The translations under genes were made by a program, and so were the position numbers. Shown piece by piece: positions 1,819-30,716 of a stretch of DNA of 64,000 nucleotides. The notes under the pieces are model-generated. The model saw only the letters and a program-made list of their open reading frames with translations. It was not told the DNA's origin and searched no databases. Origin of the DNA: Candidatus Thorarchaeota archaeon (lineage in GTDB: Archaea; Asgardarchaeota; Thorarchaeia; Thorarchaeales; Thorarchaeaceae); the NCBI GenBank assembly GCA_046758445.1, contig JBHIAE010000010.1, forward strand, positions 4,052 to 68,051, in the 5' to 3' direction. Every line of letters begins with the position of its first letter. Positions within the stretch are counted from its first letter, which is position 1.

Positions 1819-3435
1819 GTGATACACGGGTTATTCTTAGCTTGCATTGGTACAGTACAGGACATAGGAGCTATACACTTGACCCTAGATTCTTCGTCCA
1901 AACGTTGTCCCTCATGTCAGCGTAACAATGCCAGTCACATGTGTGAGGACTGTGGCACTGTGCTATGCTCTGAGTGCTTGGAACCTAGATCAAGTGAATA
2001 CCAAGTATGCAAAGACTGTCACAACTCAGTATCCAGTTCGTACGAAGAGGACAAGATAGAAGTCTGTCCTGAGTGTGAGTCTGAGAACATAAGCACCGGT
2101 CGACGCACCGAGGACATGTGCCCCCGATGCCACTCAGGCCGCATCGTCCTTCTTGAAGAGAAACGAAGAAGCCTTGCGCAGGACCTTCGCCATGCAATAA
2201 TGAACATTCAATATGGCCATACTAGACTTCGCGAGTTCGCGAATCGATTGGACTCAGCTAAGAGGATACTTGTTTCGTTGAGGATGGCGAACTTCCTACA
2301 TTATCATTGGCTTGAGGACAAGATTGAAACAATCCAAGAGGAGCTTCCTGCAATCAAGAACAGGGTTGGTAACCAAGCTGAGATAGTATCCCGAAGAATG
2401 GCAGCGGAAACAAGCGGACTAATAGACTACAATCGGTGGACTCCAGGACAATTTCCATTCATCGAAGGGGTCACAAACAGGGTTTCAGAGATTAGCAACC
2501 ACTACAAGCAGAACGTAGACGATGCTCTGGATGAAGTGAAGCCCTTACTGAATGACGTGAGTACGCAGCTTGATGGACTGAGCTATCACCGGACCGAGTT
2601 CAAAGAGTTCTATGAACATGGCGAGTTATCCGTGAATGAACTGCCTGTCTGTGCTCTGCCAGATATCAAGATGGTGGGGAGCAACTTCCTGAAGAATGAC
2701 AAGGCCGAGGGGACCATGTATATCACCAACAAGAGGTTGATCTTCGTCGCTGAAACTGGCAGGCTTCGTAAGAAGACAGAGATTGTGTTTGACTTCCCAC
2801 TCGTCTACCTGAAGGAGATAGAAGAGGACGGTCGCCTGAGGAAGAAGCTTGTCCTAAAGATGAAACAAGGAAACCTGCGGATTAGCTGCAATGAAGAAAC
2901 GAAGAAGGTCCTTCCCGACTACATTGAGATTGCCAGACGATTTGAGAGGTACATGCAGACTGACCTTCAAAGAGTAAGGAAGATTGAGCAGAAGTCAGTG
3001 AGCATCAGCGATGTCCGACTCAAAATCGAAGGTTTGGTCTACTCCCTCCTTTCAGGTGGAAACATAGAGCTTCAAGACGGGTTGCCTACAAGACGGTGGC
3101 TGGACACTAGGGCAAAACCCACCCCAATGAGGATGCGCGATAATGCGTCAAGATATGACTACTATGACAGCTCAAAGAGGTTCAGAGACCACTTGGAAGA
3201 CACCATAGGTCGGGCTGACTATGGTACAAGAGGCCAGGACACACAATTGGAAACACTGCGACGAAACGCAATGGAAATCGATGGGGCAATTGACGAAACA
3301 ATTCGATTGATGCGTAGCGGCCATTTGGTCACTGAGGACTTCATCAGAAGGTATCGTGGACTCATGCGTGACTCATACTACACGAGAAGAGAGATTGAAC
3401 GTGTTGCCAGGGAAATGGGCAGATACAGATGGTAG
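1819..3435 (+). CDS. Uncharacterised zinc-finger / coiled-coil / GLUE(GRAM)-like PH-domain protein adjacent to ESCRT genes
   Basis: 538-aa ORF. The track start is GTG 1819; I prefer TTG 1879, which has AGGAG 8 nt upstream. Residues ~30-106 carry CPSC..CEDC..CSEC..CKDCH (cross-brace B-box/FYVE-like spacing) and then CPEC..CPRCH (zinc ribbon). Residues ~110-280 are long helical/heptad sequence. Residues ~290-370 read KAEGTMYITNKRLIFVAETG...VFDFPLVYLKEIE...LVLKMKQGNLRISC, which resembles the GRAM/GLUE split-PH signature (compare Vps36 G.LLLTTHRLIW). No TM segment or signal peptide. Confidence 0.6.
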   Translation: MIHGLFLACIGTVQDIGAIHLTLDSSSKRCPSCQRNNASHMCEDCGTVLCSECLEPRSSEYQVCKDCHNSVSSSYEEDKIEVCPECESENISTGRRTEDMCPRCHSGRIVLLEEKRRSLAQDLRHAIMNIQYGHTRLREFANRLDSAKRILVSLRMANFLHYHWLEDKIETIQEELPAIKNRVGNQAEIVSRRMAAETSGLIDYNRWTPGQFPFIEGVTNRVSEISNHYKQNVDDALDEVKPLLNDVSTQLDGLSYHRTEFKEFYEHGELSVNELPVCALPDIKMVGSNFLKNDKAEGTMYITNKRLIFVAETGRLRKKTEIVFDFPLVYLKEIEEDGRLRKKLVLKMKQGNLRISCNEETKKVLPDYIEIARRFERYMQTDLQRVRKIEQKSVSISDVRLKIEGLVYSLLSGGNIELQDGLPTRRWLDTRAKPTPMRMRDNASRYDYYDSSKRFRDHLEDTIGRADYGTRGQDTQLETLRRNAMEIDGAIDETIRLMRSGHLVTEDFIRRYRGLMRDSYYTRREIERVAREMGRYRW

Positions 3436-4044
3436 TTAGATTCCAAGTTCGCGCTCCAGCTCTTTGATGTCTTCTTCTAGAGACTCGGTTTCTGAAACAG
3501 GCTTAGCCACAGCAGAGGCGTCCAAAAGGCCTGCTTCTACATCAAGTTCCTGCATTGCACTTGATAGATCTTCAGAACTCACATCCATGGTCATGTCAAG
3601 TGCTTCACCGGAAATGCTGGCCTCAATCTCGAAATCATCAAGTCTTCGTGCGATTTCATCGACGTTCTCAACTAGCTTCTTCGCATCTGAAGTATTCCCG
3701 AGCATTCCGAGTATCTTACCGACTTCTTCTAGCGCGCGGCTCGTCTTCGCAGACGTCTGTGCTCGATTCAAATGAGCAAGTATCTTCAGTATTTGAAGAC
3801 GCGACTTGTCTACGGAAAGAGCGAACCTACGAAAGCGAACCATCTCCGTCGCATAGGTTCGGAATGCCTCAACTTGCCCGGTCTTCCTGGCTTTGACAGC
3901 CCTGGCCTTTGTGTCCCGTTCCTCTTTCTCTAACTTGTTTCTCTGTCGCTCCAGCTGTTTGGCCAGGATTCTTAGCTGACTGGATACCTCGCCAGCATCA
4001 GGCCTCTTGCGACCCCATGAGAACGCCTTCCTTAGTGAATCCAA
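3436..4044 (-). CDS. ESCRT-III subunit, Vps2/24/46 (CHMP2)-like, Snf7 family
   Basis: 202 aa with a TTG start and GGTGA 6 nt upstream. It has a basic helical N-half and an acidic C-half. LERQRNKLEKEERDTKARAVKARKTGQVEAFRTYATEMVRFRR aligns by eye to the CHMP2A core (LDRERQKLE...AKQGQMDAVRIMAKDLVRTRR). The C-terminal amphipathic EEDIKELERELGI looks like a MIM1 element. Confidence 0.8.
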   Translation of the reverse strand: MDSLRKAFSWGRKRPDAGEVSSQLRILAKQLERQRNKLEKEERDTKARAVKARKTGQVEAFRTYATEMVRFRRFALSVDKSRLQILKILAHLNRAQTSAKTSRALEEVGKILGMLGNTSDAKKLVENVDEIARRLDDFEIEASISGEALDMTMDVSSEDLSSAMQELDVEAGLLDASAVAKPVSETESLEEDIKELERELGI

Positions 4045-4101
4045 GAAAACTCACCACGTCTACGGGACATATTCCCTGAAGTCTAGCTTGGAAGTTCCGC
4101 G

Positions 4102-4107
4102 TTTAAA
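4102..4107. promoter_or_regulatory. Candidate TATA box (TTTAAA, palindromic) in the divergent ESCRT-III / vps4 intergenic region
   Basis: TTTAAA lies 58 nt upstream of the ESCRT-III TTG start. That placement fits a ~30-nt leader containing the GGTGA Shine-Dalgarno. The same hexamer occurs at -26 of tRNA-Arg(CCG) and about 35 nt upstream of the ADH gene ATG. Confidence 0.35.
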
Positions 4108-4180
4108 CCTTCGCAGGACAGGCCAATCTGAAGGTCATCTCATCAGGAGTATACCACGTATGGTAACAGTCACACAGAAG

Positions 4181-4187
4181 TTATTAA
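4181..4187 (+). promoter_or_regulatory. Candidate TATA box for vps4 (TTATTAA)
   Basis: It ends 32 nt upstream of the vps4 ATG and no SD motif intervenes. This implies a near-leaderless mRNA, the same spacing I see at the ADH, HIT and GT-C genes. Confidence 0.4.
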
Positions 4188-4218
4188 CGTCAGAAGGCCC
4201 CAATAGACCTGAACTCGG

Positions 4219-5436
4219 ATGTCTGATAGGTTAGACCTGGGCTTGAAGAAACTTCTCGACAAGGCCATAGAACTGGACCAAAGGGGAATGAAGAAGGAAG
4301 CATCGCAGTACTATCTCAAGGCAAGCAAGGTCTTGATCAAGCTGTCTAACGCATCATCTCTTCCTTCTGTCAAGAAGCACTATGTGGATAGGGCTCAGGA
4401 ATGTGTGGACAGGGTCAGATACATCTCCGGTATCAAGAAGAAAGCCAGGGGGCCTCCCGACGGTCTAACGACTCCGCTCTCACCAAGTCCTGTCAGAGAT
4501 GCAGAGGCCATCAGCGAAACGGAACCAGAAGCCGAAGTGGAAATGGATGAGGACACTCGAAGACTGCAGGAGATGATCGCGGACACGATTATCTCAGAGA
4601 AACCCAGCACAAAGATGTCAGAGGTGGCTGGCCTCGAAGCAGCAAAGCAGGCCATCAACGATGCGATTGTCGCACCAATGAAACATCCCGAGCTATTCAT
4701 GGCGAAGGCTAGACAACCATGGAGGGGAATTCTCTTCTATGGTCCAGCAGGCTGCGGAAAGACACTGATCGCGAAAGCAGTGGCTGCAGAGGTCAATGCC
4801 ACATTCTTCAATGTTTCAGCAGGAAACATAGTCAGCAAGTGGCTGGGAGAGTCGGAGAGACTTGTCATGACCCTATTTCAACTGGCCAGAAAGAGCCAGC
4901 CAGCGATAATATTCATGGATGAGCTTGACTCAATTGGGGTTTCCAGATCCGGCGACGACGTTGGCGGAGAGAGACGTCTAAAGACCCAACTATTGACAGA
5001 ACTTCAGGGACTAGCTAGTGAGGCTCAGGATAGAATAACTGTGATTGGCGCGACCAACTTGCCGTGGGAGCTGGATTTCGCACTCAGATCTCGGTTTGAG
5101 AAGAAGATTCACGTTCCACTTCCTGACAAGACTGCACGAAAGAACATCTTTCAGATTCACATGGAGGACATTGAGGTTTCATCGGAGATTGACTACGATG
5201 AGCTTGCGGACCTCAGTGAAGGATACAGCGGCCGAGACATTAGCGTTGTGTGCAGAGAGGCAGCAATGGAGCCGATTAGAGACCTCCAACACTCAGGTCG
5301 AATGGATGAGGAAGAAGAGATTCTAGATATTCGTCCTGTTTCCAGAGAGGACTTTCTCCAAGCGATTGAGAACATAAGACCGGCCACTTCTCCTGAGGAT
5401 GTCAAGAGATACATCGACTGGGCGGAGGGTTCGTAG
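4219..5436 (+). CDS. vps4: Vps4 / CdvC AAA+ ATPase (MIT domain + AAA)
   Basis: 405 aa. It has an N-terminal MIT-like three-helix region (LLDKAIELDQRGMKKEASQYYLKASKVLIKL...YVDRAQECVDRVRYI), Walker A GPAGCGKT, Walker B IIFMDELD, the SRH region VIGATNLPWELDFALRSRF, and a Vps4-type C-terminal helix (VKRYIDWAEG). Confidence 0.92.
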   Translation: MSDRLDLGLKKLLDKAIELDQRGMKKEASQYYLKASKVLIKLSNASSLPSVKKHYVDRAQECVDRVRYISGIKKKARGPPDGLTTPLSPSPVRDAEAISETEPEAEVEMDEDTRRLQEMIADTIISEKPSTKMSEVAGLEAAKQAINDAIVAPMKHPELFMAKARQPWRGILFYGPAGCGKTLIAKAVAAEVNATFFNVSAGNIVSKWLGESERLVMTLFQLARKSQPAIIFMDELDSIGVSRSGDDVGGERRLKTQLLTELQGLASEAQDRITVIGATNLPWELDFALRSRFEKKIHVPLPDKTARKNIFQIHMEDIEVSSEIDYDELADLSEGYSGRDISVVCREAAMEPIRDLQHSGRMDEEEEILDIRPVSREDFLQAIENIRPATSPEDVKRYIDWAEGS

Positions 5437-5439
5437 GTT

Positions 5440-6171
5440 TTGGGAGTCAAGGAAAGGCGCAAAGAGAAGGAGAAGGCAGAAGCTGCGTCAAAGACTGCAG
5501 AAGAAGAAGTCGAACCTGTCAAGGAGATTCGACCTCAGAGCATTGAAGAAACCCACAGACCTGTTGTTGAGATCGTAGAAGAGGCATCGGAGATTGTTCC
5601 GGAGGCTACCAATGAGGGGGTTGTCGAAGCAGTTGCAGATGACGTCACAACCTCACCTGTGGAAACCATTCTCCTCCCTTCGTGGGGCAATCAGAACGAA
5701 ACTGAATGGATGTACAGCATACCCCCTAGGGAGGAAGACAAGAAGATGTGGGCGGAGGAGTGGGCAGACTTCGTTCTAGGGTGGGCTGAAGCAAGTGGAA
5801 TTCACGTGCTCTCCGTCACTACATTCATCAAGGAGCCTCCTTTCAGCGATATCTCTGGGAAGGTAGATTCATTCCAACTGATTGGTGAAGTGCTGGTCGA
5901 GAAGAAGATTGCAGAGTGGCTTGACGAGGCGAGAAGACAGCTCCGAGTCTATTGGAGATTCCTCGAGGAATGGGCTGACATCATGTATCAATGGGCAATG
6001 AAGTCCGGAAAGCTAAGACTCGATGTGAAATCCATTGTAATCCAAGAAGAGGAACAGGGTTTCGCGAATCTGCCCGAAAAGGACATCCACATAATCATGA
6101 GAATCATGGTTGAGAAGGGAATGGCGACCTGGGTCGACAAGACGAAGGGTGCCATAAAGGTCAAGGTCTAG
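5440..6171 (+). CDS. vps25: ESCRT-II subunit Vps25-like (tandem winged helix)
   Basis: 243 aa with a TTG start 3 nt after the vps4 stop and GGAGG upstream. The C-terminal ~155 aa align by eye with human VPS25: WMYSIPP vs WQYRFPP, WADFVLGW vs WCSLVLSF, KIAEWLDEARRQLRVYWRFLEEWADIMYQWA vs GNLEWLDKSKSSFLIMWRRPEEWGKLIYQWV, and terminal GAIKVKV vs RGVKFF. The acidic ~90-aa N-terminal extension depends on the non-ATG start. Confidence 0.8.
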   Translation: MGVKERRKEKEKAEAASKTAEEEVEPVKEIRPQSIEETHRPVVEIVEEASEIVPEATNEGVVEAVADDVTTSPVETILLPSWGNQNETEWMYSIPPREEDKKMWAEEWADFVLGWAEASGIHVLSVTTFIKEPPFSDISGKVDSFQLIGEVLVEKKIAEWLDEARRQLRVYWRFLEEWADIMYQWAMKSGKLRLDVKSIVIQEEEQGFANLPEKDIHIIMRIMVEKGMATWVDKTKGAIKVKV

Positions 6172-6174
6172 AGC

Positions 6175-6933
6175 TTAACGGGCAGACCCAAAGGATTGGT
6201 CACTCTTATCCCTGGCCCTAAGGCCGGGAAAGTAATAGCGGCCTCCAGTGGAGAAACGAATGTCAGCCACGGCCATTCCAGCATCGACGAGGCTCGCGAG
6301 GACTTGACGTGCATGGTCTTCTGACCATTTGAACTGCATCATTACCTCCTCAACCGATACATGACCTTTTGAAGCTGCTAGGTTGACAACGTCAGCCTGG
6401 TCTCTTCTTAGCTCTAAGGGGCGAAGCTCAACTACTTTCACACCGCCTCTAAGAGTACGAATCCCAGGGATAAGGCCATGTTCCGCCACTCGATTCACAG
6501 CCTCAATCACATCACTGTAACTCACGGCCTTGAGCTCAGGGAGACGTTTGACAACCTCAACGATCAGCTCTGCCAGCCCCATGAGACCTTTCGAAGCGTT
6601 TGCAGTGGCAACGTCAAGTATGGCGAGCCCAATGTAGTCATAGTACTCCTCTTGGGACATTCCGTCTGCTCTTGGATGAGTTTCAGACCTTTGAAGATTC
6701 AGCAGCTGAATAGCATCAGCAAATCGTTCTGTTAGCCTCTCCATCTCCATGAAAGAACTGATGTCAAGCCCAATCCGACTGAAGTCATCGATATTGTGTT
6801 TGACCTCTCTTGTAAGTGCTTCAGACTCTCTTTGATATGACCTGATATCGACCACTCCCAAATCGAACATCTTCTTCAGTTGGTCCAGCGTGGCTATGGA
6901 CGCGTAGAGTTCTGACTGAAGTCGCTCCTGCAT
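6175..6933 (-). CDS. vps22: ESCRT-II subunit Vps22 / SNF8 (EAP30 domain)-like
   Basis: 252 aa. By-eye alignment to human SNF8/EAP30: EEYYDYIGLAILDV vs DFYYELGVQIIEV, VSYSDVIEAVNRV vs VSQDDLIRAIKKL, GHVSVEEVMMQFKWSEDHARQVLASLVDAGMAVAD vs GYVTVSEIKASLKWETERARQVLEHLLKEGLAWLD, and RYYFPGL vs HYWLPAL. Confidence 0.85.
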   Translation of the reverse strand: MQERLQSELYASIATLDQLKKMFDLGVVDIRSYQRESEALTREVKHNIDDFSRIGLDISSFMEMERLTERFADAIQLLNLQRSETHPRADGMSQEEYYDYIGLAILDVATANASKGLMGLAELIVEVVKRLPELKAVSYSDVIEAVNRVAEHGLIPGIRTLRGGVKVVELRPLELRRDQADVVNLAASKGHVSVEEVMMQFKWSEDHARQVLASLVDAGMAVADIRFSTGGRYYFPGLRARDKSDQSFGSAR

Positions 6934-8922: not shown

Positions 8923-9597
8923 ATGTACTCCTTTGATGCCCTCGAGATTATTGGTCATCGCAGCCTACCAGTTCCCAACACCTTCTATAGACTGGAAAGG
9001 AGGTCTAATAGACTTGCTTTGGTTTTCCCAGGACGAGGGTATACCTCACAAGCTCCACTGCTCCATTACACAATAAGCACACTGATTGCTGCAGGGTTCA
9101 ATGTGCTAAGTGTGAACTATTCGTATCTTCACAACAATGACTTTGAGTCACTCCGGAGAGAGGAGCAAATGAGATGGTTGTATGATGATGTGGAAGCCGC
9201 GTATCATGTAGCCACCAAGAAGCTAGATGCAGAAGTGGATGTTCTCATTGGCAAATCCTTGGGTACTATTGCAATAGGCCATTTGCTTGACAAACATCCA
9301 AGACTGTCACAGTGTAGGGTGGTATGGCACACGCCATTGATACTCTTGCCTGAACTCCAGCAGCAGATCAAGAACCATCACCCACAATCGCTCTTCGTGA
9401 TTGGCACGGCAGATCCACACTATGATCAAGATACGTTGGCGGAGTTGGTGGAATCGACCAATGGCGAGGCAGTGGTTGTTGAGGACGCGAACCATGCAAT
9501 GGAAGTGCCTGGAGAGGTCAATGACTCGTTGTGGATCATTGGTAAGATCATTGACAGCGTCGGGGAGTTTCTGGGGGTCACTGCTTCTGAAGGATGA
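8923..9597 (+). CDS. Alpha/beta hydrolase
   Basis: 224 aa with the nucleophile elbow GKSLG, then GTADP and DANHAM (Ser-Asp-His triad spacing). Confidence 0.65.
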   Translation: MYSFDALEIIGHRSLPVPNTFYRLERRSNRLALVFPGRGYTSQAPLLHYTISTLIAAGFNVLSVNYSYLHNNDFESLRREEQMRWLYDDVEAAYHVATKKLDAEVDVLIGKSLGTIAIGHLLDKHPRLSQCRVVWHTPLILLPELQQQIKNHHPQSLFVIGTADPHYDQDTLAELVESTNGEAVVVEDANHAMEVPGEVNDSLWIIGKIIDSVGEFLGVTASEG

Positions 9598-10936
9598 GAA
9601 TCCACTCACCGTGCATTCGTTCCCTCCGCGGGATACGGATGAAATGTCTGATGAGCGCAGAGAAGAAGACCTTATCAAGACTGAAACCAACATCTTCAGC
9701 TGTGGCAATCTCTGAGAGGATTTCGTGAGAGGGGACCTCAACATTGCGAATCAAGTTGTTGCCTATCGCCACACAATAATGCCCACCTGGTTTCAGCACC
9801 CTAGCCATCTCCTGAAACTGGAGCTTCATGTCCTCGAAGAACTTGTAGGTGATGAATGACCGTCGTGGGTCCTGGTCGAATATCTCCTCAAGAATCGGGT
9901 CCAGAGTTTCAACGCCAGAGATTTTGAGTCGTTCATATTCCCTCTTGTAGACCGTTTCGGTTCCGATGTACTTTCGCTTCATATTTGAGAGAGGACCCTC
10001 CTCCACGAGCCCGAGCCAATACATCTCGAGCTGATGGGTTCGTGGATAGTCGACTGCGTTTATATATGGAGGAGAGCTCACGGCGAGGTCAATAGCAGAA
10101 GTTCTCAGTCCAGTTTCCATAGCATTTCCATCAGGAAGTCGAACCTCTCCAACTCCCGAAGTCTGATATAATGTATGTAAACGCTTCATGCCATCAAGCT
10201 GTCTAGAGAGAGCTGAGTAGAATCTAGCAATAGTGTCTCCAGCACTGATCTTCTTCACGAGGTTCTTTCGTATGACGGTCCTGGTACAGTGTGGATCGGC
10301 ATTGGAAGCATCTCTGATTATCGATGAGAACACGACCTGCATGAAGTCAACGACATCACTATGATGCGAGCTGGTTCGGGTCACCCCTAGGTCGGTGAGG
10401 TCAAGATCGCATATACTCTCTAGAATGATGCCAAGCTCCCTGAGAACGAACGGACGAAACCACGTATCTCTATAATTGAAGTCAGGGATATGTGGTTCGG
10501 AATCACGAGCTCTTTCTTTCTTCTTGATGGCTTCCATCAGTTTCTCGCACGCGGATTCGAGCAGAAACTCCTCTATTGGAGTCGTTTTGACCTTCGTTAT
10601 CAGGCGTGCCATTGGGTCGATGTCAATTCCAACTGCATTTCTTCCTGATAGCATCGCCTCAAGAACCACTGTACCACTGCCGCACATTGGGTCCAGAACC
10701 TGATGATTCCTCTCAGAGTATCTTCGGATCAGATAGCGTGGCAGCTCGGGGAAGAACTTGGCTGGGAATTTGTGGATTCCATGTGTTAGGTAGGACTGGT
10801 CCCGGCTAATTATCAGTATTTTTGCATGATTGGGTATGGAGGTGTCTGGGTCGATGTCCCCATGAATCTCTAGAAGCTCTTCATCGCTGTCACTGGAACT
10901 ATCCAAAGGTCGACTGCGACTAGAAGGGGTTCCCAT
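9578..10936 (-). CDS. N4-C/N6-A type methyltransferase with SPPY motif (orphan; DNA target assumed)
   Basis: 452 aa. The AdoMet motif VLDPMCGSGTVVLEA is preceded by HKFPAKFFPELP (like HPAxFP of N6_N4 MTases). The catalytic motif DLAVSSPPYINAVDY lies ~200 aa downstream, so motif I comes before motif IV. No nuclease gene is adjacent. The 3' end overlaps the convergent hydrolase gene by 20 nt. Confidence 0.75.
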   Translation of the reverse strand: MGTPSSRSRPLDSSSDSDEELLEIHGDIDPDTSIPNHAKILIISRDQSYLTHGIHKFPAKFFPELPRYLIRRYSERNHQVLDPMCGSGTVVLEAMLSGRNAVGIDIDPMARLITKVKTTPIEEFLLESACEKLMEAIKKKERARDSEPHIPDFNYRDTWFRPFVLRELGIILESICDLDLTDLGVTRTSSHHSDVVDFMQVVFSSIIRDASNADPHCTRTVIRKNLVKKISAGDTIARFYSALSRQLDGMKRLHTLYQTSGVGEVRLPDGNAMETGLRTSAIDLAVSSPPYINAVDYPRTHQLEMYWLGLVEEGPLSNMKRKYIGTETVYKREYERLKISGVETLDPILEEIFDQDPRRSFITYKFFEDMKLQFQEMARVLKPGGHYCVAIGNNLIRNVEVPSHEILSEIATAEDVGFSLDKVFFSALIRHFIRIPRRERMHGEWILILQKQ

Positions 10937-11088: not shown

Positions 11089-12480
11089 TCAAACGCTGTC
11101 TGATATGGCCTTGTCGAGTCGATCTGCGACGTTGTCGATGTCTTCCTTAGTCATGATGTAGCTTGGAGTGAACCTTAGCACATTCTGACCAGCACCGAGA
11201 ATCCATAGTCTATGTTTCTGGACTGCATTCTTGAGAATCCTGTTCCGCAGCTTCGGAGCCTTCTCTTTTGACTTCTTGTCTTTCACAAGTTCGACGCCAG
11301 TCATCAGGCCGATTCCTCGAACGTCGCCGACGACCTCATGTTTGTCCTTCAGTTCATCGAGTCTCTTTCTGAGGTAGACCCCGCTCTCTGCATTCTTCTT
11401 GAGGAAATCGCCATCCTCGATGTTCTTCAGAATCCAGAGAGAAAGAAGAGACATCTTTGGCTCCGCGGAGAAGGTTTCAGAATGACGCGCACCTGAAGTG
11501 TACATTGGCGCTGGACCAATGGACGCACCCATCGGATAACCACCTCCAAGCGCCTTGGCCATCGAGATATAGTCTGGAACGACATCATGATTCTCAACCG
11601 CGAACCACCTGCCAGTGCGTCCCATTCCGGCTTGTACCTCATCAGACATGAAGAACCCACCGGCCTCTTTCGTGACCTCATACATGCCCTTGACGGCCTT
11701 GGCCGGAGGCACAATCAGTCCACCTTCGCCACAGATTGGTTCCATTACTGTGGCGGCGATATCATCACCTTCAACCTGTAGCGCGTACCTCAGTGCCTCA
11801 ACGCATTCCAAGTTGCAGTCCTCAACATTCTGACCGTACGGACAACGGTAACAGTAGGGATAGAAGACACGAATCACATCTACACCTTGTGGAAATCCAT
11901 ACTTGTGCTTCGAGTTCGTGGATGTAAGTGCAAGAGCATATCCTGTTCTCCCATGAAAGGCGGGTCTAAAAGTGACGAATCTGCGCCTACCTGAGATGTC
12001 CATCGCAGATTTCATACATCCCTCTACAGCGCGACTCCCAGACGTGGTGAAAACGACACGTTTCTTATGACTGCCGGGACTAATCTTGGCCAGCTTCTCA
12101 GCGAGCAACGTCTGAGGAATTGCATCGAAGTCCATGCCAGGGAACTCGCGAATGACATCATTGATTCTAATCTCAAAGTCAAGATACGGCTTATGCTGCA
12201 GTCCGAACGCTCGGACGGCCACTCCGCCCGTGACGTCAAGATACTCCGTTCCCTCAACGTCGTAGATCTTGACTCCTTTGCCCCTAGTATGGTCAAGACA
12301 GCCATAGACATCTCTGTCTTGAGTCGTGATGGCCAAAGCCTCAGCAGCTCTCTTCTTCCAATAGTCATTCGTCATCTCTGCGGAACCTATGTCTTCAAAC
12401 CCAAGCTCCTTGAGAATCTGAATATGCTTGTCATCCATTATGCTCACTTCACAAAGCGGTTGGGTCGCTCGAGGGTCCAC
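11089..12480 (-). CDS. Class III PLP-dependent aminotransferase (ArgD/GabT/LysJ family)
   Basis: 463 aa with DEVQAGMGRTGRWFA and the PLP-lysine context SMAKALGGGYP. The start may be an internal ATG (MDDKHIQ). Confidence 0.88.
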   Translation of the reverse strand: MDPRATQPLCEVSIMDDKHIQILKELGFEDIGSAEMTNDYWKKRAAEALAITTQDRDVYGCLDHTRGKGVKIYDVEGTEYLDVTGGVAVRAFGLQHKPYLDFEIRINDVIREFPGMDFDAIPQTLLAEKLAKISPGSHKKRVVFTTSGSRAVEGCMKSAMDISGRRRFVTFRPAFHGRTGYALALTSTNSKHKYGFPQGVDVIRVFYPYCYRCPYGQNVEDCNLECVEALRYALQVEGDDIAATVMEPICGEGGLIVPPAKAVKGMYEVTKEAGGFFMSDEVQAGMGRTGRWFAVENHDVVPDYISMAKALGGGYPMGASIGPAPMYTSGARHSETFSAEPKMSLLSLWILKNIEDGDFLKKNAESGVYLRKRLDELKDKHEVVGDVRGIGLMTGVELVKDKKSKEKAPKLRNRILKNAVQKHRLWILGAGQNVLRFTPSYIMTKEDIDNVADRLDKAISDSV

Positions 12481-12605
12481 TCCATTATCTAATTTCCGGA
12501 TACGGCGTAATCACTTCGTATTGAGATGACACCACAGAAAAAGATAGGAAAGAGCGGGCGGGAGTTCCCATACCTGCTCAATTCGATCGTATTCTAGTCA
12601 CGTGC

Positions 12606-12935
12606 CTACTTGACTACGTAGAGCAGGGCTCCAGTGATAACGAGTATGGCAGCAATGCCGCCACTCACAATCAGCATCAGTACTCCGAGAATCAGAAGAA
12701 CAACCCAGTTGTTGTCGAACTTCAGTGCAGGAATGTTGATCACACCGCTGGTGGCCAGCACAATCAGGGAAAGGAGAACTAGGATTATCCCCTCAACCAA
12801 AGCCTCAAGGATACCAAGACCCCACAAAGAGAGACCATAGGTTCCGATTCCGGCGGCGATTAGAATCCCGAATAGGAGACCGATAAGTCCCCCAAGGACT
12901 ACGAGTAGCTCGCCGATTTTCTTCAAGTTTGCCAT
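12606..12935 (-). CDS. Small polytopic membrane protein
   Basis: 109 aa with about 4 hydrophobic helices. It has a tandem neighbour of similar architecture. Confidence 0.5.
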   Translation of the reverse strand: MANLKKIGELLVVLGGLIGLLFGILIAAGIGTYGLSLWGLGILEALVEGIILVLLSLIVLATSGVINIPALKFDNNWVVLLILGVLMLIVSGGIAAILVITGALLYVVK

Positions 12936-12954
12936 TTCATGACATCCCCTTGTT

Positions 12955-13323
12955 CTAACTCTTAGTGATTACCAAGATTCCGGCGATGAGAATCATCAAG
13001 CCAGCAAGTGTTCCCGCGTTCATTAGCCAGCCGATGACATCAAAGCTGACATTGCGAAGAACAATGACGATAGCTATGAACCCGAATACCGCCAGAAGAA
13101 TACCGTTTCTCGCTACCCTCCAGTATACATACCCGGACGCATCGACGGAGAGAACGGCAATCAAGATGAGCGTAATCGCCAAGACCGTTTCTATGACGCC
13201 TTCGAAGTCCCCACCTAGAGCCTGGTTGATTCCGCCGATGAGCATTTGAAGAGCATACACCAGCAGAACCAGAGCGCCTAGGAGAGTGAAGCCTTGAGCG
13301 GCGCCTTCAGCTTTACATCCCAC
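12955..13323 (-). CDS. Small polytopic membrane protein (likely paralog of 12606..12935)
   Basis: 122 aa with about 4 hydrophobic helices and similar G/L/I/V-rich composition. Confidence 0.5.
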   Translation of the reverse strand: MGCKAEGAAQGFTLLGALVLLVYALQMLIGGINQALGGDFEGVIETVLAITLILIAVLSVDASGYVYWRVARNGILLAVFGFIAIVIVLRNVSFDVIGWLMNAGTLAGLMILIAGILVITKS

Positions 13324-13529
13324 GTTATCTTGTCCCCAAACAATGTTCTATGACACGGATATGTATTGGCACAAACGCCCACATCGTCTGACCCCGAGCA
13401 GAGGTAGAACAATGATAAAAGTATCGCTTCGCAACGACCAACCTTGAACGGTTTTGGACAGCCACGGGCGTAATACATAGGATTGTATTCGATGGCAGAC
13501 CACCTCTTCATGTACGAAAGAAGACTGGG

Positions 13530-14408
13530 GTGACCACAACGCGATATCCCACATATGAAGGGAGCAAGTCCTCAGAGCGCTCAGTAAGACTGGATCGCAC
13601 TGAAGGGCACATTGTCATTGAGGGGAGAGCATATCCCGCTAGAGAACTTGTAGAAGCGCTTGCGCAATCTGGATACACTGAACTGAAGGCAGTTGGTGAC
13701 TCACTCATGCTTGGCAGGAAACGTATAACTCCCATTTTCAAGTCTAGACAGGATCGAGCAATGGCCAGTGTCTGCCACGGAAGTCTGGCTTTCTGTTGTC
13801 CTCTATCGAAGAGATGTGCAGAGCGAGATCGTGCACTGGAGATGTTGGGCCTAACTCCCGATGAATATGGTCGAATGAAGAATGATGCACACCTGAGGTT
13901 CGTCGAGTCCGCAAGAGGGTTGTCCACTGTGGATGATTCTCCTACATATGACGAACGACGACACAGACTAGCAAACGAGCCCGCAGTAGACCGGGGTTAT
14001 GGCTCTGACGACTATCGCAGGGACTTTGATTCACTTGAACGCACTGTTCAGCCATATGGCCGACCATCTGAGAGAGTGACTGATCCATGGATGCGAGGTC
14101 GTGACACGTCGCATCCGCGGGACCATCCTTCCCTCTACACAGACAGTGACCAAGCAGACTCGTATGCGGACCTAAGCAATCTCTTCGTAGATGAACACAA
14201 GTCACAGGGTGGCTTTTCATCCGCACCAGCCTGTGATATTCGTACTGGTGAGAATGTTGAAGGCCTCGGTGCATTGTTTGCACAAGGCGAGCTAAGTCCA
14301 TTTAGTTCGGAATCTGATGGGAGAGAGAGTAGGACATTCTGTTTCTCCTGTGGTAGAACATTCAGGGCCGGGACAAAGGTATGTCCATGGTGTGGAGTGC
14401 CACAATAG
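13530..14408 (+). CDS. Hypothetical protein: Cys-rich N-domain, disordered D/R/Y/S-rich middle, C-terminal zinc ribbon
   Basis: 292 aa with a GTG track start. It contains CHGSLAFCCPLSKRCAERD and the terminal FCFSCGRTFRAGTKVCPWCGVPQ. I recognise no family. Confidence 0.45.
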   Translation: MTTTRYPTYEGSKSSERSVRLDRTEGHIVIEGRAYPARELVEALAQSGYTELKAVGDSLMLGRKRITPIFKSRQDRAMASVCHGSLAFCCPLSKRCAERDRALEMLGLTPDEYGRMKNDAHLRFVESARGLSTVDDSPTYDERRHRLANEPAVDRGYGSDDYRRDFDSLERTVQPYGRPSERVTDPWMRGRDTSHPRDHPSLYTDSDQADSYADLSNLFVDEHKSQGGFSSAPACDIRTGENVEGLGALFAQGELSPFSSESDGRESRTFCFSCGRTFRAGTKVCPWCGVPQ

Positions 14409-14415
14409 GACTGAA

Positions 14416-15447
14416 CTAGTAGCTACCTATCGCACTCTCGCGTCGGGTGGAATAGTCGCTTGGATAACTGAAAGTAGTGGCTATGCGATTGACACCAGCG
14501 TCTTTGGCCAACGCCTTTAGCTCCAGGAGCTGCTCGATTGACGTGACCCCCCATCGGAAGAGTGTGGCCATTCCACCACGGCGCTGAAACTCATTGGTGA
14601 AGTATAGAGATTCAATCAGCTCATCATACTCACCAGAACCTTCACTAGGCAGAATGGGACTCCATGGATAGAGATTGATGAGGACATTCCCAGTGATATC
14701 TAGGATGCTATTGTAGTCGTAGCCGTATTGACACTTGGCACCCTCGGAGAATCCTGTTTCAGGATCTAGAAGTACTTCAACCGAGATGCGCAGAGGATTC
14801 TCCCTGCCAACCTTCTCATCGGCATCACGTGCGGCCTCTTGCAGATGCTTGAGCCCCTGATTCACCTTGCCTGTCCGCCACTCGTGCCATTTGTCATGGT
14901 GCTCTGGTTCCTCAGTTATGTATTCATACGTCAAACGATTTGGCTCTTGACCGACCATGGGTGCAAACTCGTTCCTGCACCTCTCACAGAAACAGAAGTG
15001 ATCACGTATGAAGCCTGCACCGAAAAGCAGTATCTCATCAATGGGATAGGAGGCTAGCTCGCTGACAATCTCTGCGCCATATGCCCAAAACTCCTCTCTG
15101 TTCGGACATATCTGGTGAGGCATCACCTCGCCCCGCGGCGCGATCGTGAAGTACTTGGGGTCCTTTGCGAACCATGCATCCGTATAGAAGTCCATACCGG
15201 CAACAGTATGAATGTCCAGAGTGTTGGAGAGACTGATGAGTTCCTCAAAGAGTTGAGTGTGCTCCTCGTTCACAGGGGCTGTGCGGCTTGGATACATGGC
15301 ATGTCCTGTGGGTGCCTTTCCGACAATTCCAATCGATTCCATGTAAGACGCAAAGTTCGATATGAATTCCTTCGCAGACATTTCGATTTCAGTAGGTCTC
15401 AAGAGAATGAGGGGTTTGTGTAGGAAGAATTCCCTGAAATTAGGCAT
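14416..15447 (-). CDS. Hypothetical protein, possibly a TIM-barrel glycoside-hydrolase-like fold
   Basis: 343 aa. The CFCERCRNEF (CxCxxC) motif followed by aromatic residues recalls the zinc site of GH42-like and GHL families. This is a weak assignment. Confidence 0.45.
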   Translation of the reverse strand: MPNFREFFLHKPLILLRPTEIEMSAKEFISNFASYMESIGIVGKAPTGHAMYPSRTAPVNEEHTQLFEELISLSNTLDIHTVAGMDFYTDAWFAKDPKYFTIAPRGEVMPHQICPNREEFWAYGAEIVSELASYPIDEILLFGAGFIRDHFCFCERCRNEFAPMVGQEPNRLTYEYITEEPEHHDKWHEWRTGKVNQGLKHLQEAARDADEKVGRENPLRISVEVLLDPETGFSEGAKCQYGYDYNSILDITGNVLINLYPWSPILPSEGSGEYDELIESLYFTNEFQRRGGMATLFRWGVTSIEQLLELKALAKDAGVNRIATTFSYPSDYSTRRESAIGSY

Positions 15448-19477: not shown

Positions 19478-20644
19478 TTGAGCGGAAGAAGGAAACTAGT
19501 CTTCTTTGACCAGACACAAAATGAGCGCGGCAGAATAGACACCACATATTCGGAGCTTGCCAAACTCCTAAGAAACAATGATTTCGATGTTGAACCATAC
19601 ACCGAGTTCATGATTCTTGCAAAGAACATTGAGAATGCTGATGTCATCGTCTTCGGTTGTCCGAATAGCTCGAAGCTTAGACCTGCTGAAATCGATGTCC
19701 TAAAACGATACGTGCAGAAGGGTGGAGGCCTATTATTGCTCTCTCTATCCGGAGGGGACAGAGGCCTCATGAACAACATGAGCCAAATCTCGAGAGGTTT
19801 TGGAATAAGCTTCGAGAACACCGCGTTCCGTGATGAACGTAGTAATGCGGGAATCCCCACAATGCCCATCATCACAGACCTAATATCGCATCCTGTCAAT
19901 GAAGGGATAGAGGACTTGCTTGTGCCATCAAGTTGTACATTGAAGGTCACTGCGAAGGGGACGGTTCTTGCCTCATCTTCAAACACAGGAGACCCTCCTA
20001 ACAAACCGATTGTGGCCATTGCAGAACCCAAAAAGGGGCGGATGATCTGCGTAGGAAGTTATGAGGTATTCAGAAGAGGAGGCGGAATGAAACATCCAGG
20101 AAACAAGCAGTTTGCAGTTAATACGTTCAAGTGGCTGAGTGGAGAAGTCAGTCTTGTCAAACCTAGCGAAGTGGATGACGCAAAGAAGGTAACGGCAGCC
20201 AAGGCTAGGGTTTCCAAGAGAGAAGCTGCAGAGATGGAGAAGACTATGCGGAGACTCGTAAACGCAGTCTTCGACCTACAAAAGGACATAGGAAAGGTCG
20301 CCAAACAAGTGACGAATGTGGAGAGGAATGTCGAGCTGTTGCGAGATCAGTTTCAAGATTTCGCTGAAAAGACGCAGACCCAACTGGGCGTGATGATTCC
20401 AGCGGGGCAATTCAGGACTGAGGAGGAGAATCAGGCCGCAGAGATTGAGGCTGACATTAAAGCGCTGGAGAAAGAAGTTAGGTCAGTTCGCCAGCTTAGA
20501 GATCACGTTGAAGGGAAACATTCCTCCGGGGCTATGCCCAAGGAAACTTACATGGAGCAGGCAGAGAAACTAGATGGAAGACTGAGGAGTCTTGAGAAGA
20601 GACTCAAGGGTCGGAAGAAGGAATTAGAGAAGATTCTCAGTTAG
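19478..20644 (+). CDS. GIFT / GldG / DUF4350-like (IFT52 N-terminal-like) domain protein with C-terminal coiled coil
   Basis: 388 aa with a TTG start and AGGTG 8 nt upstream. The N-terminal ~230 aa include ADVIVFGCPNSSKLRPAEIDVLKRYVQKGGGLLLLSLSGGD...ISRGFGISFENTAF...RMICVGSYEVF...NKQFAVNTFKWLSG. As I recall the families, this follows the GIFT-domain pattern shared by GldG and IFT52. The C-terminal ~150 aa are heptad-rich. Confidence 0.6.
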   Translation: MSGRRKLVFFDQTQNERGRIDTTYSELAKLLRNNDFDVEPYTEFMILAKNIENADVIVFGCPNSSKLRPAEIDVLKRYVQKGGGLLLLSLSGGDRGLMNNMSQISRGFGISFENTAFRDERSNAGIPTMPIITDLISHPVNEGIEDLLVPSSCTLKVTAKGTVLASSSNTGDPPNKPIVAIAEPKKGRMICVGSYEVFRRGGGMKHPGNKQFAVNTFKWLSGEVSLVKPSEVDDAKKVTAAKARVSKREAAEMEKTMRRLVNAVFDLQKDIGKVAKQVTNVERNVELLRDQFQDFAEKTQTQLGVMIPAGQFRTEEENQAAEIEADIKALEKEVRSVRQLRDHVEGKHSSGAMPKETYMEQAEKLDGRLRSLEKRLKGRKKELEKILS

Positions 20645-20651
20645 TCGGCTC

Positions 20652-22142
20652 CTACTCTCGATTCCTAGCTGCGGCCCGATTCCGGATTTGTGTGTCGAGT
20701 CTTCTGATTGGGGAAGTGACCCTTTGATATACTTCTGAGAAGGGCTTATGAAGGACGTAACCGAGAATGATTAGAAAGAGGAACAGCAGGTAGAAGTTGC
20801 GATCAGGCACCAACACAAGGAAACTGATCAATAGTGGGACGGCAATCATAGGCAGGGAAATCCTTGCGGAATATGGCTCCCGCCGGCAAATTGCGGATGT
20901 TGACATGATGCTAAAGAATGGAACAAGCGCAACCATGTAGTACTTGTAGATGCCCCGAGGCGAGAAGAAATGTGCCCAGAACAGCAGGACTAGGGTCAGG
21001 AAGAGCATTCTTCTCCAGTAGCCCTCAAGGTTGCGATCATCCTTCACCTCAAGAAGCATCATAGCTAAGAGCGGCAGTATACCCAAAGTCAATGCGACCG
21101 AATAGTAGGTGATTAGATTCACTGCTTGGATAAGCCATTCGGGAGCACCAAGGATAATCAGTACAACTGCGGGCGTTATTGGGTTGTTTATGGGAGGCGG
21201 AGTTGTGAGGTCTCTTAGCAAGGTAGCACCAACGCGCTGAAAGATATAGAAGAAGTAGTTGGAGAAATCAATGAGGTATGGCATAGAGAGAGCGCCTGCA
21301 AAGAGCAATACAATGATGGCAATCTTGGCGAATCCTTTGAGGTCGAAATCATCACTTGTAGGTTTCTTTGTAGTCGACTCTGTGTCCTCTGAATCATCAC
21401 CCATTTCTAGTGGTCCTGGAGGTTTCTTTAGTAGCACTGCAACGAGTGGCAAAGCCAGAAAGAATGCCGTTTGTTTGAAGAATGCAGCTGTGGTCAACGC
21501 GAGAGCTCCAGAAACGCGTCTGTTCTTAATGACGAGGTAGAATGAGAGTACCGCAAAGAAGACAAAAGGTGCGGGATTCAGCCATTCGAAAGCAGTATGG
21601 TAAAGGACTATGGGGTTTAGCAGATACATAGCGGCTGATACTGCTCCCACATCTCGGTTCTGTGAGAGGTATGTCGCAATCCCGTAGACAGGGAACGACG
21701 TGAGAAATCCAAACCCTGAGATCAGCAGGCCGATACCGATGTCTGGGTGGATTATCTCACCAAGAGCGCACATGTAGACGTACAGCGGCGGAAAGAAGTA
21801 GATAACATTGTACTCTGTGCTACCTCGAAACAGCCGATTGAAATCATCTGTATAGGGCATGCGACCGCTCAGAAACTGATCTGCCCAGCTATGGTAGAAG
21901 TAGTCATGGTCTGCCCAGCCCTCAAAATGCACTGCAAGTGTATAGCCGAAGATGTCGATGCTACCCTCGCCATTCCAGACAGCTCTTGGCCAGTTCGGGT
22001 TTGCGACAAACTCAGTAGCGGCTCGGATGAACATCATCGTCCATACAAATGAGGCTGTGACAATAACAATCAGAAAGAGCCAGTGTCTACGTATTAGGAC
22101 CAATAAGCGGTCCGATGTTCCACTTGATTGTTTGCTCATCAA
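20652..22142 (-). CDS. GT-C fold integral-membrane glycosyltransferase (PIG-M/PimE/DUF2029-like), paralog 1
   Basis: 496 aa with more than 10 TM helices. The first-loop motif is GWADHDYFYHSWADQFLSGRMPYTD. It shares FKQTAFFLALPLV and SPRGIYKYYMVALVPFFSI with 23768..25441. The probable start is the ATG at 22137-22139. Confidence 0.7.
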   Translation of the reverse strand: MMSKQSSGTSDRLLVLIRRHWLFLIVIVTASFVWTMMFIRAATEFVANPNWPRAVWNGEGSIDIFGYTLAVHFEGWADHDYFYHSWADQFLSGRMPYTDDFNRLFRGSTEYNVIYFFPPLYVYMCALGEIIHPDIGIGLLISGFGFLTSFPVYGIATYLSQNRDVGAVSAAMYLLNPIVLYHTAFEWLNPAPFVFFAVLSFYLVIKNRRVSGALALTTAAFFKQTAFFLALPLVAVLLKKPPGPLEMGDDSEDTESTTKKPTSDDFDLKGFAKIAIIVLLFAGALSMPYLIDFSNYFFYIFQRVGATLLRDLTTPPPINNPITPAVVLIILGAPEWLIQAVNLITYYSVALTLGILPLLAMMLLEVKDDRNLEGYWRRMLFLTLVLLFWAHFFSPRGIYKYYMVALVPFFSIMSTSAICRREPYSARISLPMIAVPLLISFLVLVPDRNFYLLFLFLIILGYVLHKPFSEVYQRVTSPIRRLDTQIRNRAAARNRE

Positions 22143-22342: not shown

Positions 22343-23683
22343 GTGACTGCAATCCCAAAGAAAAAGGACATAGATAGCCTCCTTGGAAACGCTAGGAGCA
22401 TGTTGGCACAGGGAAGACTCGGTGACGCTCATGATCATGCAAAACGTGCCCTCAGCATTGCGACTGATATACTGCAGATCGCGGAAATACAGATGTTGTT
22501 GGGAGAGGTCTTCCGAAGTAGGGAAGAATGGAGTACGGCTGTGGCCCATTTCAGAAAGGCCACAGAGATTGACACTGAGAACAAAGAGGCATGGCTCGGT
22601 CTTGCAGAGTCCTTGGAGAGTTCCGGGAAGGGAGATGATTGGAAGACTGCAGCCGAGAAGACAGTCCAACTGGGAGGAGGCGATTCAAGCCTCCGTTCTA
22701 AACTAGCTGATTACATTGCAGTCGACGAGGGGACCGACCGGGCCAAGGTCCAAATCGCCCTCAACCAGAACGAGGAAGCGGAGAAGACTCTCAAGGAGCT
22801 GATTCCCTTGCTTCCTAGTGATCCGAAAGGCAACGATGAATTGCGATGGACAACCGTTCTCCTTCAGCTGGGCCAAGTTAAGAGAAGATTGGGCAAGTAT
22901 GAGGAGTTGGAAGCTTGTTCTAAGAAACTCCTGAGCTTCAAGAAAGTCCATGATGTACTTCTATTTCGAGGCATTATGAACATCAAAGTTGACCTCGCTG
23001 TGGCTCTCAAGGGACAGAACAAGATGGAGGAGCTAGATACTCTCGTGAAAGAGGTCCTAGCCGTTACACCAGATGATTCAGAAACGCTGTTTCAGAAGGG
23101 TCTTCTTCTCGGCTCAATAGAGCATCATTATGAGGCGGTCAAATACCTTCGTCAAAGTCTGAAGATGGACCGATTTGATGCAAGAGCCATGCATAGGCTC
23201 AAGTTTGAACTCGAAACAATTGGCGATGCAAGAACGCAGTTCTGGTGTCCACACTGCCAGGAGAAATACACTATCCCAGTCTATCCAACAGACCCAGCTG
23301 GAATCCCGACCATGGTGTTCTATATCAAGACAGAGGACGTAATCCCAGACAGTGTTAGACATGTATCGTGCCGGTCATGTGGCAGAATGACTGCTCTCAT
23401 ACTCTGGGTGTGTAGAAACTGCCTAGAGGGTTATGCTGGGTCACTCCAAGTTAGAGTCGATCCAGCCTCTCCAATAGTCCGAGGACAAGGGCGCGAAACA
23501 TACTATCATCGCGTGGGTAGGGCCTGTGACTCGTGCGAAGAGAATGAACCACGTGTGCACATCAGAAATAAGGATCCTAGAGAGAAACGTTTCTTCGAAG
23601 GTATGTTGACACTTAGGCCAGACCTGGTCGAACAGATTCGCGTCTTTGACCAAGTAGAGAGTGAAATGAATCAATTCGAATAA
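22343..23683 (+). CDS. TPR-repeat protein with C-terminal multi-CxxC zinc-ribbon region
   Basis: 446 aa (track start GTG; an alternative ATG is at 22400). It has TPR-like helices (AWLGLAESLESSGKGDDWKTAAEKTV) and the motifs CPHC, CRSCG, CRNC and CDSC in the last 130 aa. Confidence 0.6.
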   Translation: MTAIPKKKDIDSLLGNARSMLAQGRLGDAHDHAKRALSIATDILQIAEIQMLLGEVFRSREEWSTAVAHFRKATEIDTENKEAWLGLAESLESSGKGDDWKTAAEKTVQLGGGDSSLRSKLADYIAVDEGTDRAKVQIALNQNEEAEKTLKELIPLLPSDPKGNDELRWTTVLLQLGQVKRRLGKYEELEACSKKLLSFKKVHDVLLFRGIMNIKVDLAVALKGQNKMEELDTLVKEVLAVTPDDSETLFQKGLLLGSIEHHYEAVKYLRQSLKMDRFDARAMHRLKFELETIGDARTQFWCPHCQEKYTIPVYPTDPAGIPTMVFYIKTEDVIPDSVRHVSCRSCGRMTALILWVCRNCLEGYAGSLQVRVDPASPIVRGQGRETYYHRVGRACDSCEENEPRVHIRNKDPREKRFFEGMLTLRPDLVEQIRVFDQVESEMNQFE

Positions 23684-28929: not shown

Positions 28930-28939
28930 TCCTTATTCC

Positions 28940-30697: not shown

Positions 30698-30716
30698 TGT
30701 CCATCACATCACTCTA

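Follow-up and report, generated by a model that had tools for sequence, protein, structure and literature searches.

A compact five-gene ESCRT locus on a Thorarchaeote contig: family assignments, genomic setting and relation to known ESCRT systems

Does a short run of genes in an archaeal genome encode a eukaryote-type ESCRT machinery, or have proteins of an archaeal division system and generic winged-helix domains been over-read as such? This question is raised by positions 1819–6933 of a 64-kb stretch (the window) of contig JBHIAE010000010.1 from a Candidatus Thorarchaeota archaeon, where five long open reading frames (ORFs; g1–g5) follow one another with nearly no spacing. The original prediction had recognized eukaryote-type ESCRT genes in four of these five neighbors, and the ORF map, a Pfam scan of all 65 non-overlapping window ORFs of at least 70 aa and searches against solved structures confirmed it. 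The profiles Snf7 (PF03357; 39.3 bits vs. a curated threshold of 27.3), Vps4_C (28.2 vs. 21.3), ESCRT-II (PF05871; 54.6 vs. 27) and EAP30 (PF04157; 53.1 vs. 26.8) were all matched above threshold, whereas MIT (PF04212; 25.6 bits, E = 1.3e-5) stayed below its threshold of 30. We consider the observation confirmed because the Vps25 and EAP30 matches were family-specific and not generic winged-helix hits; the region very likely represents the standard ESCRT locus on the chromosome of a Thorarchaeote, a member of the Asgard archaea.

The fourth gene (g4; 5440–6171, plus strand, 243 aa) was assigned to the ESCRT-II subunit Vps25, since it exceeded the PF05871 threshold and matched both the Odinarchaeal Vps25 structure 7pb9 (‘Tandem WH domains of Vps25’; residues 82–239, E = 7.3e-29) and human VPS25 (3cuq_C; E = 2.5e-9). 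The tandem winged helices follow a variable, acidic, low-complexity N-terminal segment of ~80 residues (window 5440–5680), which is probably disordered. Among Thorarchaeota loci this N-terminus was often unalignable, with tblastn matches often starting at residue ~78, and outside the nearest metagenome-assembled genome (MAG) the protein showed 48–64% identity, the lowest of the five in most loci. Asgard Vps25 proteins can have additional subdomains at the N-terminus, a few of which resemble the steadiness box (Makarova et al. 2024); no such subdomain was detectable in g4.

The fifth gene (g5; 6175–6933, minus strand, 252 aa) was assigned to Vps22/EAP30. In addition to the EAP30 score, human SNF8/Vps22 was its sole match among PDB sequences (E = 7e-15), and Foldseek ranked human and yeast Vps22 chains (9.7e-9 for 3cuq_A, 1.3e-8 and 6e-6) above Vps36 chains (1.6e-5 to 7e-3). 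The protein is 73% identical to ThorAB25_09030. Its AlphaFold2 model begins with an N-terminal hairpin (helices 2–24 and 30–53, predicted local distance difference test score [pLDDT] ~90), followed by a helix and the winged helices WH1 and WH2. The N-terminus gave a weak Pfam VPS28 match (residues 7–79, E = 0.062), and the hairpin aligned with the human ESCRT-I headpiece 6vme at a template-modelling score (TMt) of 0.64–0.67 (E = 0.15). Fusion of Thorarchaeial Vps22 to a steadiness box like that of Vps28 has been reported, with residues 1–70 of KXH75178.1 (SMTZ1-45) reaching 99% in HHpred to the VPS28 N-terminus (Makarova et al. 2024, Table S3). The accompanying claim that ESCRT-II subunits occur only in Asgard archaea among prokaryotes requires softening, since distant ESCRT-II-like winged-helix proteins have meanwhile been reported outside Asgard, such as haloarchaeal arCOG11740 (HHpred 95% to Vps36; Makarova et al. 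2024 data).

The second gene (g2; 3436–4044, minus strand, 202 aa) encodes the ESCRT-III subunit, with the Snf7 match covering residues 22–170. A phmmer search against PDB sequences returned CHMP1B (9.5e-8), CHMP2A (2.2e-6) and CHMP1A (2.5e-6) ahead of Heimdall ESCRT-IIIB (2e-4) and CdvB (8e-3), with 35.7 bits for CHMP1B/2A compared with 19.6 bits for CdvB, and no match to CHMP4/6. In the current nomenclature, A-type ESCRT-III comprises CHMP1/2/3/IST1 and B-type comprises CHMP4–7; because CHMP1B, CHMP2A and CHMP1A lead the ranking, the protein is read as ESCRT-IIIA (CHMP1/2/3–Vps2/24/46 class), in agreement with the class originally predicted. It is 78% identical to ThorAB25_09000 (‘ESCRT3A’) and only 24% identical to ‘ESCRT3B’ (E = 0.31); among the 120 homologues listed there were only Thorarchaeial A-type orthologues. 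A CdvB-type C-terminal winged helix is missing from g2. Its tail (SLEEDIKELERELGI) forms an acidic/leucine amphipathic helix, SLEEDIKxLERELG[VMI], with 10 positions invariant among 120 homologues. The tail had been described as resembling an MIT-interacting motif (MIM), and this held in part: its hydrophobic positions (i, i+4, i+7, i+11) are spaced as in MIM1, but the arginine and the terminal basic residue of the MIM1 consensus, (D/E)xxLxxRLxxL(K/R), which binds the Vps4 MIT domain, are absent. Many ESCRT-IIIA orthologues carry the JGI name ‘DNA-binding transcriptional ArsR family regulator’, an evident misannotation.

The third gene (g3; 4219–5436, plus strand, 405 aa) encodes a Vps4 AAA+ ATPase with an MIT-like N-terminus, a single AAA cassette (Pfam AAA 134.5 bits, AAA_lid_3 49.4 bits) and the Vps4_C helix; its translation contains Walker A (GPAGCGKT), Walker B (IIFMDELD) and a pore loop (SKWLGESE) of the W-(L/M)-G-E form. 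Human VPS4B matched at 283 bits in one stretch (residues 12–359) and yeast Vps4 at 269 bits, whereas Cdc48/p97 exceeded VPS4B in total only by matching twice (two stretches, ~350 bits for Cdc48). The predicted MIT-AAA Vps4 therefore stood for the AAA and Vps4_C parts, whereas the MIT score fell below the Pfam threshold and the MIT region alone matched only calpain-7 MIT (E = 0.07) among solved structures. Identity to Thorarchaeota Vps4 was 77–97% in 24 of the 26 syntenic loci, 68% in another (L025) and 59% in an outlier (L027).

To place the host, we used the Vps4 sequence to scan a single genome for each prokaryotic species. The scan revealed 27 loci at 59–97% identity, all in Thorarchaeota-type MAGs, a few of which are otherwise labelled: among the 26 best loci, 21 bear the label Thorarchaeota and 5 the labels Promethearchaeota, Hermodarchaeota or ‘uncultured archaeon’. 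The next matches were an unclassified archaeon (L028, 38%) and Bathyarchaeota/Thaumarchaeota CdvC (34–35%). The predicted Asgard host is thus a Thorarchaeote, and the Vps4 of its closest MAG (L001) is 97% identical. Comparison of ten window proteins (TldD through a DNA methyltransferase) with the related loci by tblastn revealed the order TldD, g1, ESCRT-IIIA, Vps4, Vps25, Vps22, AspRS and MarR in the 26 closer loci wherever the contig was long enough, usually followed by a hydrolase and a methylase. The deeper-branching L027 (CAZPUN010000064.1, 10001–12677) has kept only Vps4-Vps25-Vps22; neither g1 nor ESCRT-IIIA was found within 10 kb, and an insertion encoding membrane proteins separates Vps22 from AspRS. 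In L025, a long-read-style MAG, Vps22 is split over three frames (11987–12720), either through an assembly frameshift or as a pseudogene. The window also encodes the housekeeping proteins AspRS, PolB, Rad50/Mre11/HerA/NurA, arcTGT, TIM, FBPase, ABCE1 and PriL, and its GC content is flat at 0.48–0.52. The housekeeping neighbors and the synteny across the lineage indicate that the locus is chromosomal and not mobile, as had been proposed.

The strands and spacing of the genes suggest how they are expressed. Between the divergent ESCRT-IIIA and vps4 genes lies an intergenic region of 174 bp (4045–4218), with TTTAAA at ~4103 and TTATTAA at ~4182, which presumably houses the promoters of both units; a 75-aa ORF at 4007–4234 is probably spurious. 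Since the vps25 start lies only 3 nt past the vps4 stop, these two genes are probably co-transcribed. vps22 is convergent with vps25 and has the same direction as aspS upstream of it. The locus is therefore likely to comprise four transcription units: g1 (plus), ESCRT-IIIA (minus), vps4-vps25 (plus) and vps22 (minus).

The remaining gene, g1 (1819–3435, plus strand), opens as a mechanical ORF of 538 aa at GTG 1819. Its true start is probably TTG 1879, giving a product of 518 aa, because an AGGAG lies ~9 nt upstream of this codon and orthologues start at the equivalent ‘MTxDS’. Public gene calls place the starts of g1 orthologues at varying internal positions (420–567 aa), so that the first CxxC pair is often missing in databases. 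The names given there, ‘hypothetical’ or ‘B-box zinc finger protein’ at NCBI and in several cases ‘transposase-like protein’ at JGI, include evident misannotation.

An alignment of 25 g1 orthologues revealed six CxxC pairs (residues 30–104), five of them invariant and one at least 90% conserved, followed by a long helical region, conserved residues around ‘GTLYITNKRL’, a variable linker and a C-terminal stretch that is again conserved. All Pfam matches were below threshold (DZR 1.1e-4, B-box 3.1e-4, GRAM 8e-4, bPH_3 0.018, Vps36_ESCRT-II 0.039). The AlphaFold2 model (pLDDT 73.9) consists of a Zn region (27–111), helices (112–267), a beta-sandwich (276–356) capped by a helix (359–391), a disordered stretch (413–470) and a C-terminal helical hairpin (471–537; pLDDT ~90) in the region conserved among orthologues. 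Domain-sized Foldseek searches matched the human EAP45/Vps36 GLUE domain (2hth_B, TMt 0.56), the yeast Vps36 PH domain (2cay, TMt 0.56–0.59) and the GRAM-PH domains of MTMR2 and Lam6, all with probability 1.00 and TMt up to 0.59, in agreement with the weak Pfam GRAM and Vps36_ESCRT-II matches. Six CxxC pairs with DZR and B-box similarity correspond to the three Zn-ribbon-type modules of the Asgard family Znr_CC_PH_SB; the first four pairs could be arranged either as ribbons in sequence or as a B-box/RING-like cross-brace. The sub-threshold profiles, the model and Foldseek together point to a predicted GRAM/GLUE-like PH domain, and the overall architecture matches that family, which was named by Makarova et al. 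(2024; asCOG cog.011556, also Znr_PH_CC_SB) as a likely Asgard ESCRT-I component. The g1 orthologue of AB_25 is listed as ‘ThorAB25_08990|SB’ in the supplementary data of Hatano et al. 2022 (PMC9192718).

Two other readings of g1 were rejected. The whole-model Foldseek search was led by DH-PH RhoGEF structures with a root-mean-square deviation above 18 Å, an artefact of a helical bundle next to a PH domain and not homology. RING/CBL/FYVE matches to the Zn region reached only E values of at least 0.07, and do not identify g1 as an E3 ligase. Searching 1.8 billion representatives by profile brought up 123 clusters related to g1, many of 600–900 aa, lengths comparable to the 650-aa Lokiarchaeum member of cog.011556. 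The family shares CxxC Zn modules, the long helical region, PH and C-terminal hairpin with the Thorarchaeial protein, which is shorter (~520 aa). None of the ten clusters looked up carried a taxon or a useful name, and the spread outside Thorarchaeota is taken from Makarova et al. (2024).

Among the 65 window ORFs of at least 70 aa, the Pfam scan detected neither a second Snf7 protein nor Vps28, UEV/Vps23, ubiquitin, E1 or E2. The B-type query ThorAB25_07240, with its sequence taken from the supplementary data of Hatano et al. 2022, gave a best E value of 0.30 in the window and no match within 10 kb on either side of the locus in the 27 related genomes. Aligning the 65 ORFs by hhalign with steadiness-box, ESCRT-IIIA and ESCRT-IIIB queries yielded nothing above 5% probability besides the genes themselves. 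These results bear out the absence of a B-type (Vps20/32/60-class) ESCRT-III, Vps23/Vps28 and ubiquitin/E1/E2 that had been noted for the 64 kb. In AB_25, the B-type gene ThorAB25_07240 lies ~175 locus-tag numbers away from the locus (08990–09030; Hatano et al. 2022, PMC9192718). Thorarchaeota have been reported to lack ubiquitin, and the absence of ubiquitin genes from the window agrees with this. The further statement that ESCRT-I is missing was only half right: genes for Vps23 and Vps28 are absent, but g1 has the Znr_CC_PH_SB architecture and Vps22 carries a putative Vps28-like hairpin, and the hairpins of both are probably of ESCRT-I type.

These components suggest a possible order of action. 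The g1 protein would be seated on the membrane by its GRAM/GLUE-like PH domain and might contact cargo through its Zn modules. Its C-terminal hairpin would pair with the Vps28-like N-terminal hairpin of Vps22, forming a ubiquitin-free hybrid adaptor between ESCRT-I and ESCRT-II. Vps22 would carry Vps25, Vps25 would nucleate the B-type ESCRT-III presumably encoded elsewhere in the genome, and the B-type polymer would recruit ESCRT-IIIA. Finally, the Vps4 MIT domain would bind the C-terminal helices of ESCRT-III and disassemble the polymer, leading to membrane constriction or scission in a process that could be vesicle budding, division or repair. Several of these steps have precedents. The five AB_25 genes 08990–09030 were analyzed by yeast two-hybrid (Hatano et al. 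2022, PMC9192718); homology and this work on orthologues together indicate that Vps22 self-associates (a homodimer in AB_25) and binds Vps25, and Vps25–ESCRT-IIIB interactions were reported with Asgard orthologues; recruitment of ESCRT-IIIA by ESCRT-IIIB is likewise described in the literature. A more specific proposal, that in the ubiquitin-less Thorarchaeota g1 replaces ESCRT-0/I and Vps36, with PH and Zn modules picking membrane and cargo and the hairpin docking on Vps22 to give a two-protein bridge to ESCRT-III, is tentative, and we regard it as rather unlikely. Such a ubiquitin-independent bridge may resemble an ancestral condition that preceded ESCRT-I, Vps36 and the link to ubiquitin. 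The general version of the idea and its components are already in print (Makarova et al. 2024; Hatano et al. 2022, PMC9192718); only the specific hairpin–hairpin pairing and the cargo-selection role of g1 would be new if true.

Several points weigh against the overall reading of the locus. The A-type call for g2 and the call of g3 as Vps4 and not CdvC are provisional and come from similarity ranking, together with membership of a lineage that others had already placed. The g2 tail lacks the conserved MIM1 arginine, and the MIT domain of g3 is sub-threshold and on its own finds only that of calpain-7. The modelled resemblance of the Vps22 hairpin to the ESCRT-I headpiece has an E value of only 0.15. 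When the g1 C-terminal hairpin was compared with the Vps22 N-terminal hairpin by hhalign, the best local match fell on these regions but with a probability of 1%; homology between the two is thus not shown. The partner that Hatano et al. 2022 (PMC9192718) suggest for the free steadiness-box protein is Vps28 (‘may interact with Vps28’) and not Vps22, and the cellular role of Asgard ESCRT is described in the literature as undetermined.

This last point leaves room for a different function of the same families. Their main role may be cytokinesis, or else the release of viruses or vesicles from the plasma membrane, and not endosome-like cargo sorting, with g1 as a site-specifying adaptor like CdvA or CHMP7; we consider this quite possible, somewhat short of even. 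ESCRT-III and Vps4 drive cell division in Sulfolobales. Thorarchaeota lack ubiquitin, and ubiquitin-directed sorting is therefore unlikely. Extracellular vesicle formation and virus release were sketched by Hatano et al. 2022 (PMC9192718). However, the sequence discriminates nothing between these roles, and no division genes adjoin the locus, whose neighbors encode TldD and AspRS.

Far less of the second alternative survives, namely that the locus is a TACK-type Cdv division system (CdvA/CdvB/CdvC) whose winged-helix proteins were over-read as ESCRT-II. Among named NCBIfam models, g3 did match CdvC best (265 bits) and g2 CdvB (16 bits, E = 0.0075), and the closest relatives of Vps4 outside Thorarchaeota in the genome scan are L028 and the Bathyarchaeota/Thaumarchaeota CdvC proteins mentioned above. 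Both scores nevertheless lie far under the equivalog cut-offs of 650 bits (CdvC) and 370 bits (CdvB), g2 is nearer to CHMP1B/2A than to CdvB, g4 and g5 exceed the ESCRT-II and EAP30 thresholds with specific Vps25 and Vps22 structure matches, and no Pfam match to CdvA was returned for the window ORFs of at least 70 aa. The Cdv explanation is effectively refuted and very improbable. Recent acquisition of the cluster as a mobile island or through horizontal transfer, to which a DNA methyltransferase gene ~2.6 kb downstream might point, is more improbable still and is refuted by synteny: the gene order of the locus and its flanks, methyltransferase included, is conserved in up to 26 genomes of Thorarchaeota (50–97% protein identity). 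The flanking genes are housekeeping genes, GC is flat and no integrase or transposase is present in the window.

The methyltransferase gene itself (N6/N4 type; 9578–10936, minus strand) has kept its position in ~10 of the Thorarchaeota loci examined (~61–68% identity), and no partner restriction enzyme was seen for it. Elsewhere in the window, a complete Rad50-Mre11-HerA-NurA double-strand-break-repair operon occupies 25526–32024 on the minus strand. A 388-aa protein (19478–20644, plus strand) matches Pfam IFT52_GIFT at 58.8 bits (threshold 27.2; residues 8–116), with weaker ThuA and ABC_transp_aux matches, and may represent a eukaryote-signature-like GIFT domain in a Thorarchaeote; it adjoins an orphan 496-aa ORF (20652–22142) and a TPR protein (22343–23683). 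Five consecutive ORFs at 12606–15447 (109, 122, 77, 292 and 343 aa) have no significant Pfam family; at the end of the 292-aa ORF lies a weakly matching zinc-ribbon / Prok-RING-like motif (E 0.03–0.12).

Asgard ESCRT systems bear on the origin of eukaryotic membrane trafficking, and Thorarchaeota provide a natural case of a ubiquitin-free ESCRT-I/II/III/Vps4 set. The literature already covers the locus, its composition, the extra gene g1, the steadiness-box fusion and the missing ubiquitin, and the window adds one nearly identical copy of a locus that has been published, dissected by yeast two-hybrid and catalogued domain by domain. The special value attached to its minimal composition is therefore not upheld: this is the standard published Thorarchaeial arrangement and the norm of the lineage (26 loci, among them SMTZ1-83, and AB_25). 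Its practical value is that of a clean, fully syntenic reference copy and of a reminder of how poor public annotation is, with ESCRT-IIIA named ‘ArsR family regulator’ and g1 named ‘transposase-like’ or ‘hypothetical’.

Comparison with the TACK Cdv system revealed that an ESCRT-III protein and a Vps4-type ATPase with predicted MIT–tail recognition are common to both, whereas the Thorarchaeial locus has no CdvA, its ESCRT-III is without the CdvB C-terminal winged helix, ESCRT-II is present and the NCBIfam CdvB/CdvC cut-offs are widely missed. With the eukaryotic machinery (human 3CUQ, CHMP1B/2A, VPS4B) it shares the tandem winged helices of Vps22 and Vps25, the A-type ESCRT-III core and a Vps4 with an AAA cassette, Vps4_C helix and putative MIT domain. 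In contrast to eukaryotes, however, the locus has no Vps36 and places the GLUE-like PH domain on the separate protein g1, Vps22 bears a putative ESCRT-I-type hairpin and Vps25 a long acidic N-terminal extension; the window encodes a single ESCRT-III, the B-type gene presumably lying outside it, and no ubiquitin, UEV/Vps23, Vps37 or Vta1. The ubiquitin–ESCRT clusters known from Loki-, Heimdall-, Hel- and Odinarchaeota resemble the locus in that Vps25 runs in the same direction as Vps4, with Vps22 next to them on the other strand, but those clusters also contain ubiquitin, E1/E2/E3-like proteins, UEV-Vps23, Vps28 and usually both ESCRT-III paralogues, none of which accompany the Thorarchaeial genes.

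The closest correspondence was with the published Thorarchaeota loci, in which the five-gene order has been on record in genomes since 2016. Hatano et al. 2022 (PMC9192718, supplementary data) list ThorAB25_08990 as SB, 09000 as ESCRT3A, 09010 as Vps4, 09020 as Vps25 and 09030 as Vps22, with the distant 07240 as ESCRT3B. On SMTZ1-83 contig LRSK02000130.1, EAP30 (252 aa), ESCRT-II (243 aa), Vps4 (405 aa), Snf7 (202 aa), the g1 orthologue and TldD are arranged just as in the window; for SMTZ1-45, the accessions are KXH75178 (Vps22) and KXH75181 (ESCRT-III; Makarova et al. 2024). These loci (AB_25, SMTZ1-83 and SMTZ1-45) share with the window the same five genes, order, orientation and TldD/AspRS flanks, and the protein lengths are alike, as the SMTZ1-83 values show. 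ESCRT-IIIA is 78–90% identical and Vps22 73% identical between them and the window, so that, apart from differing start calls for g1, the loci differ by species-level sequence divergence only.

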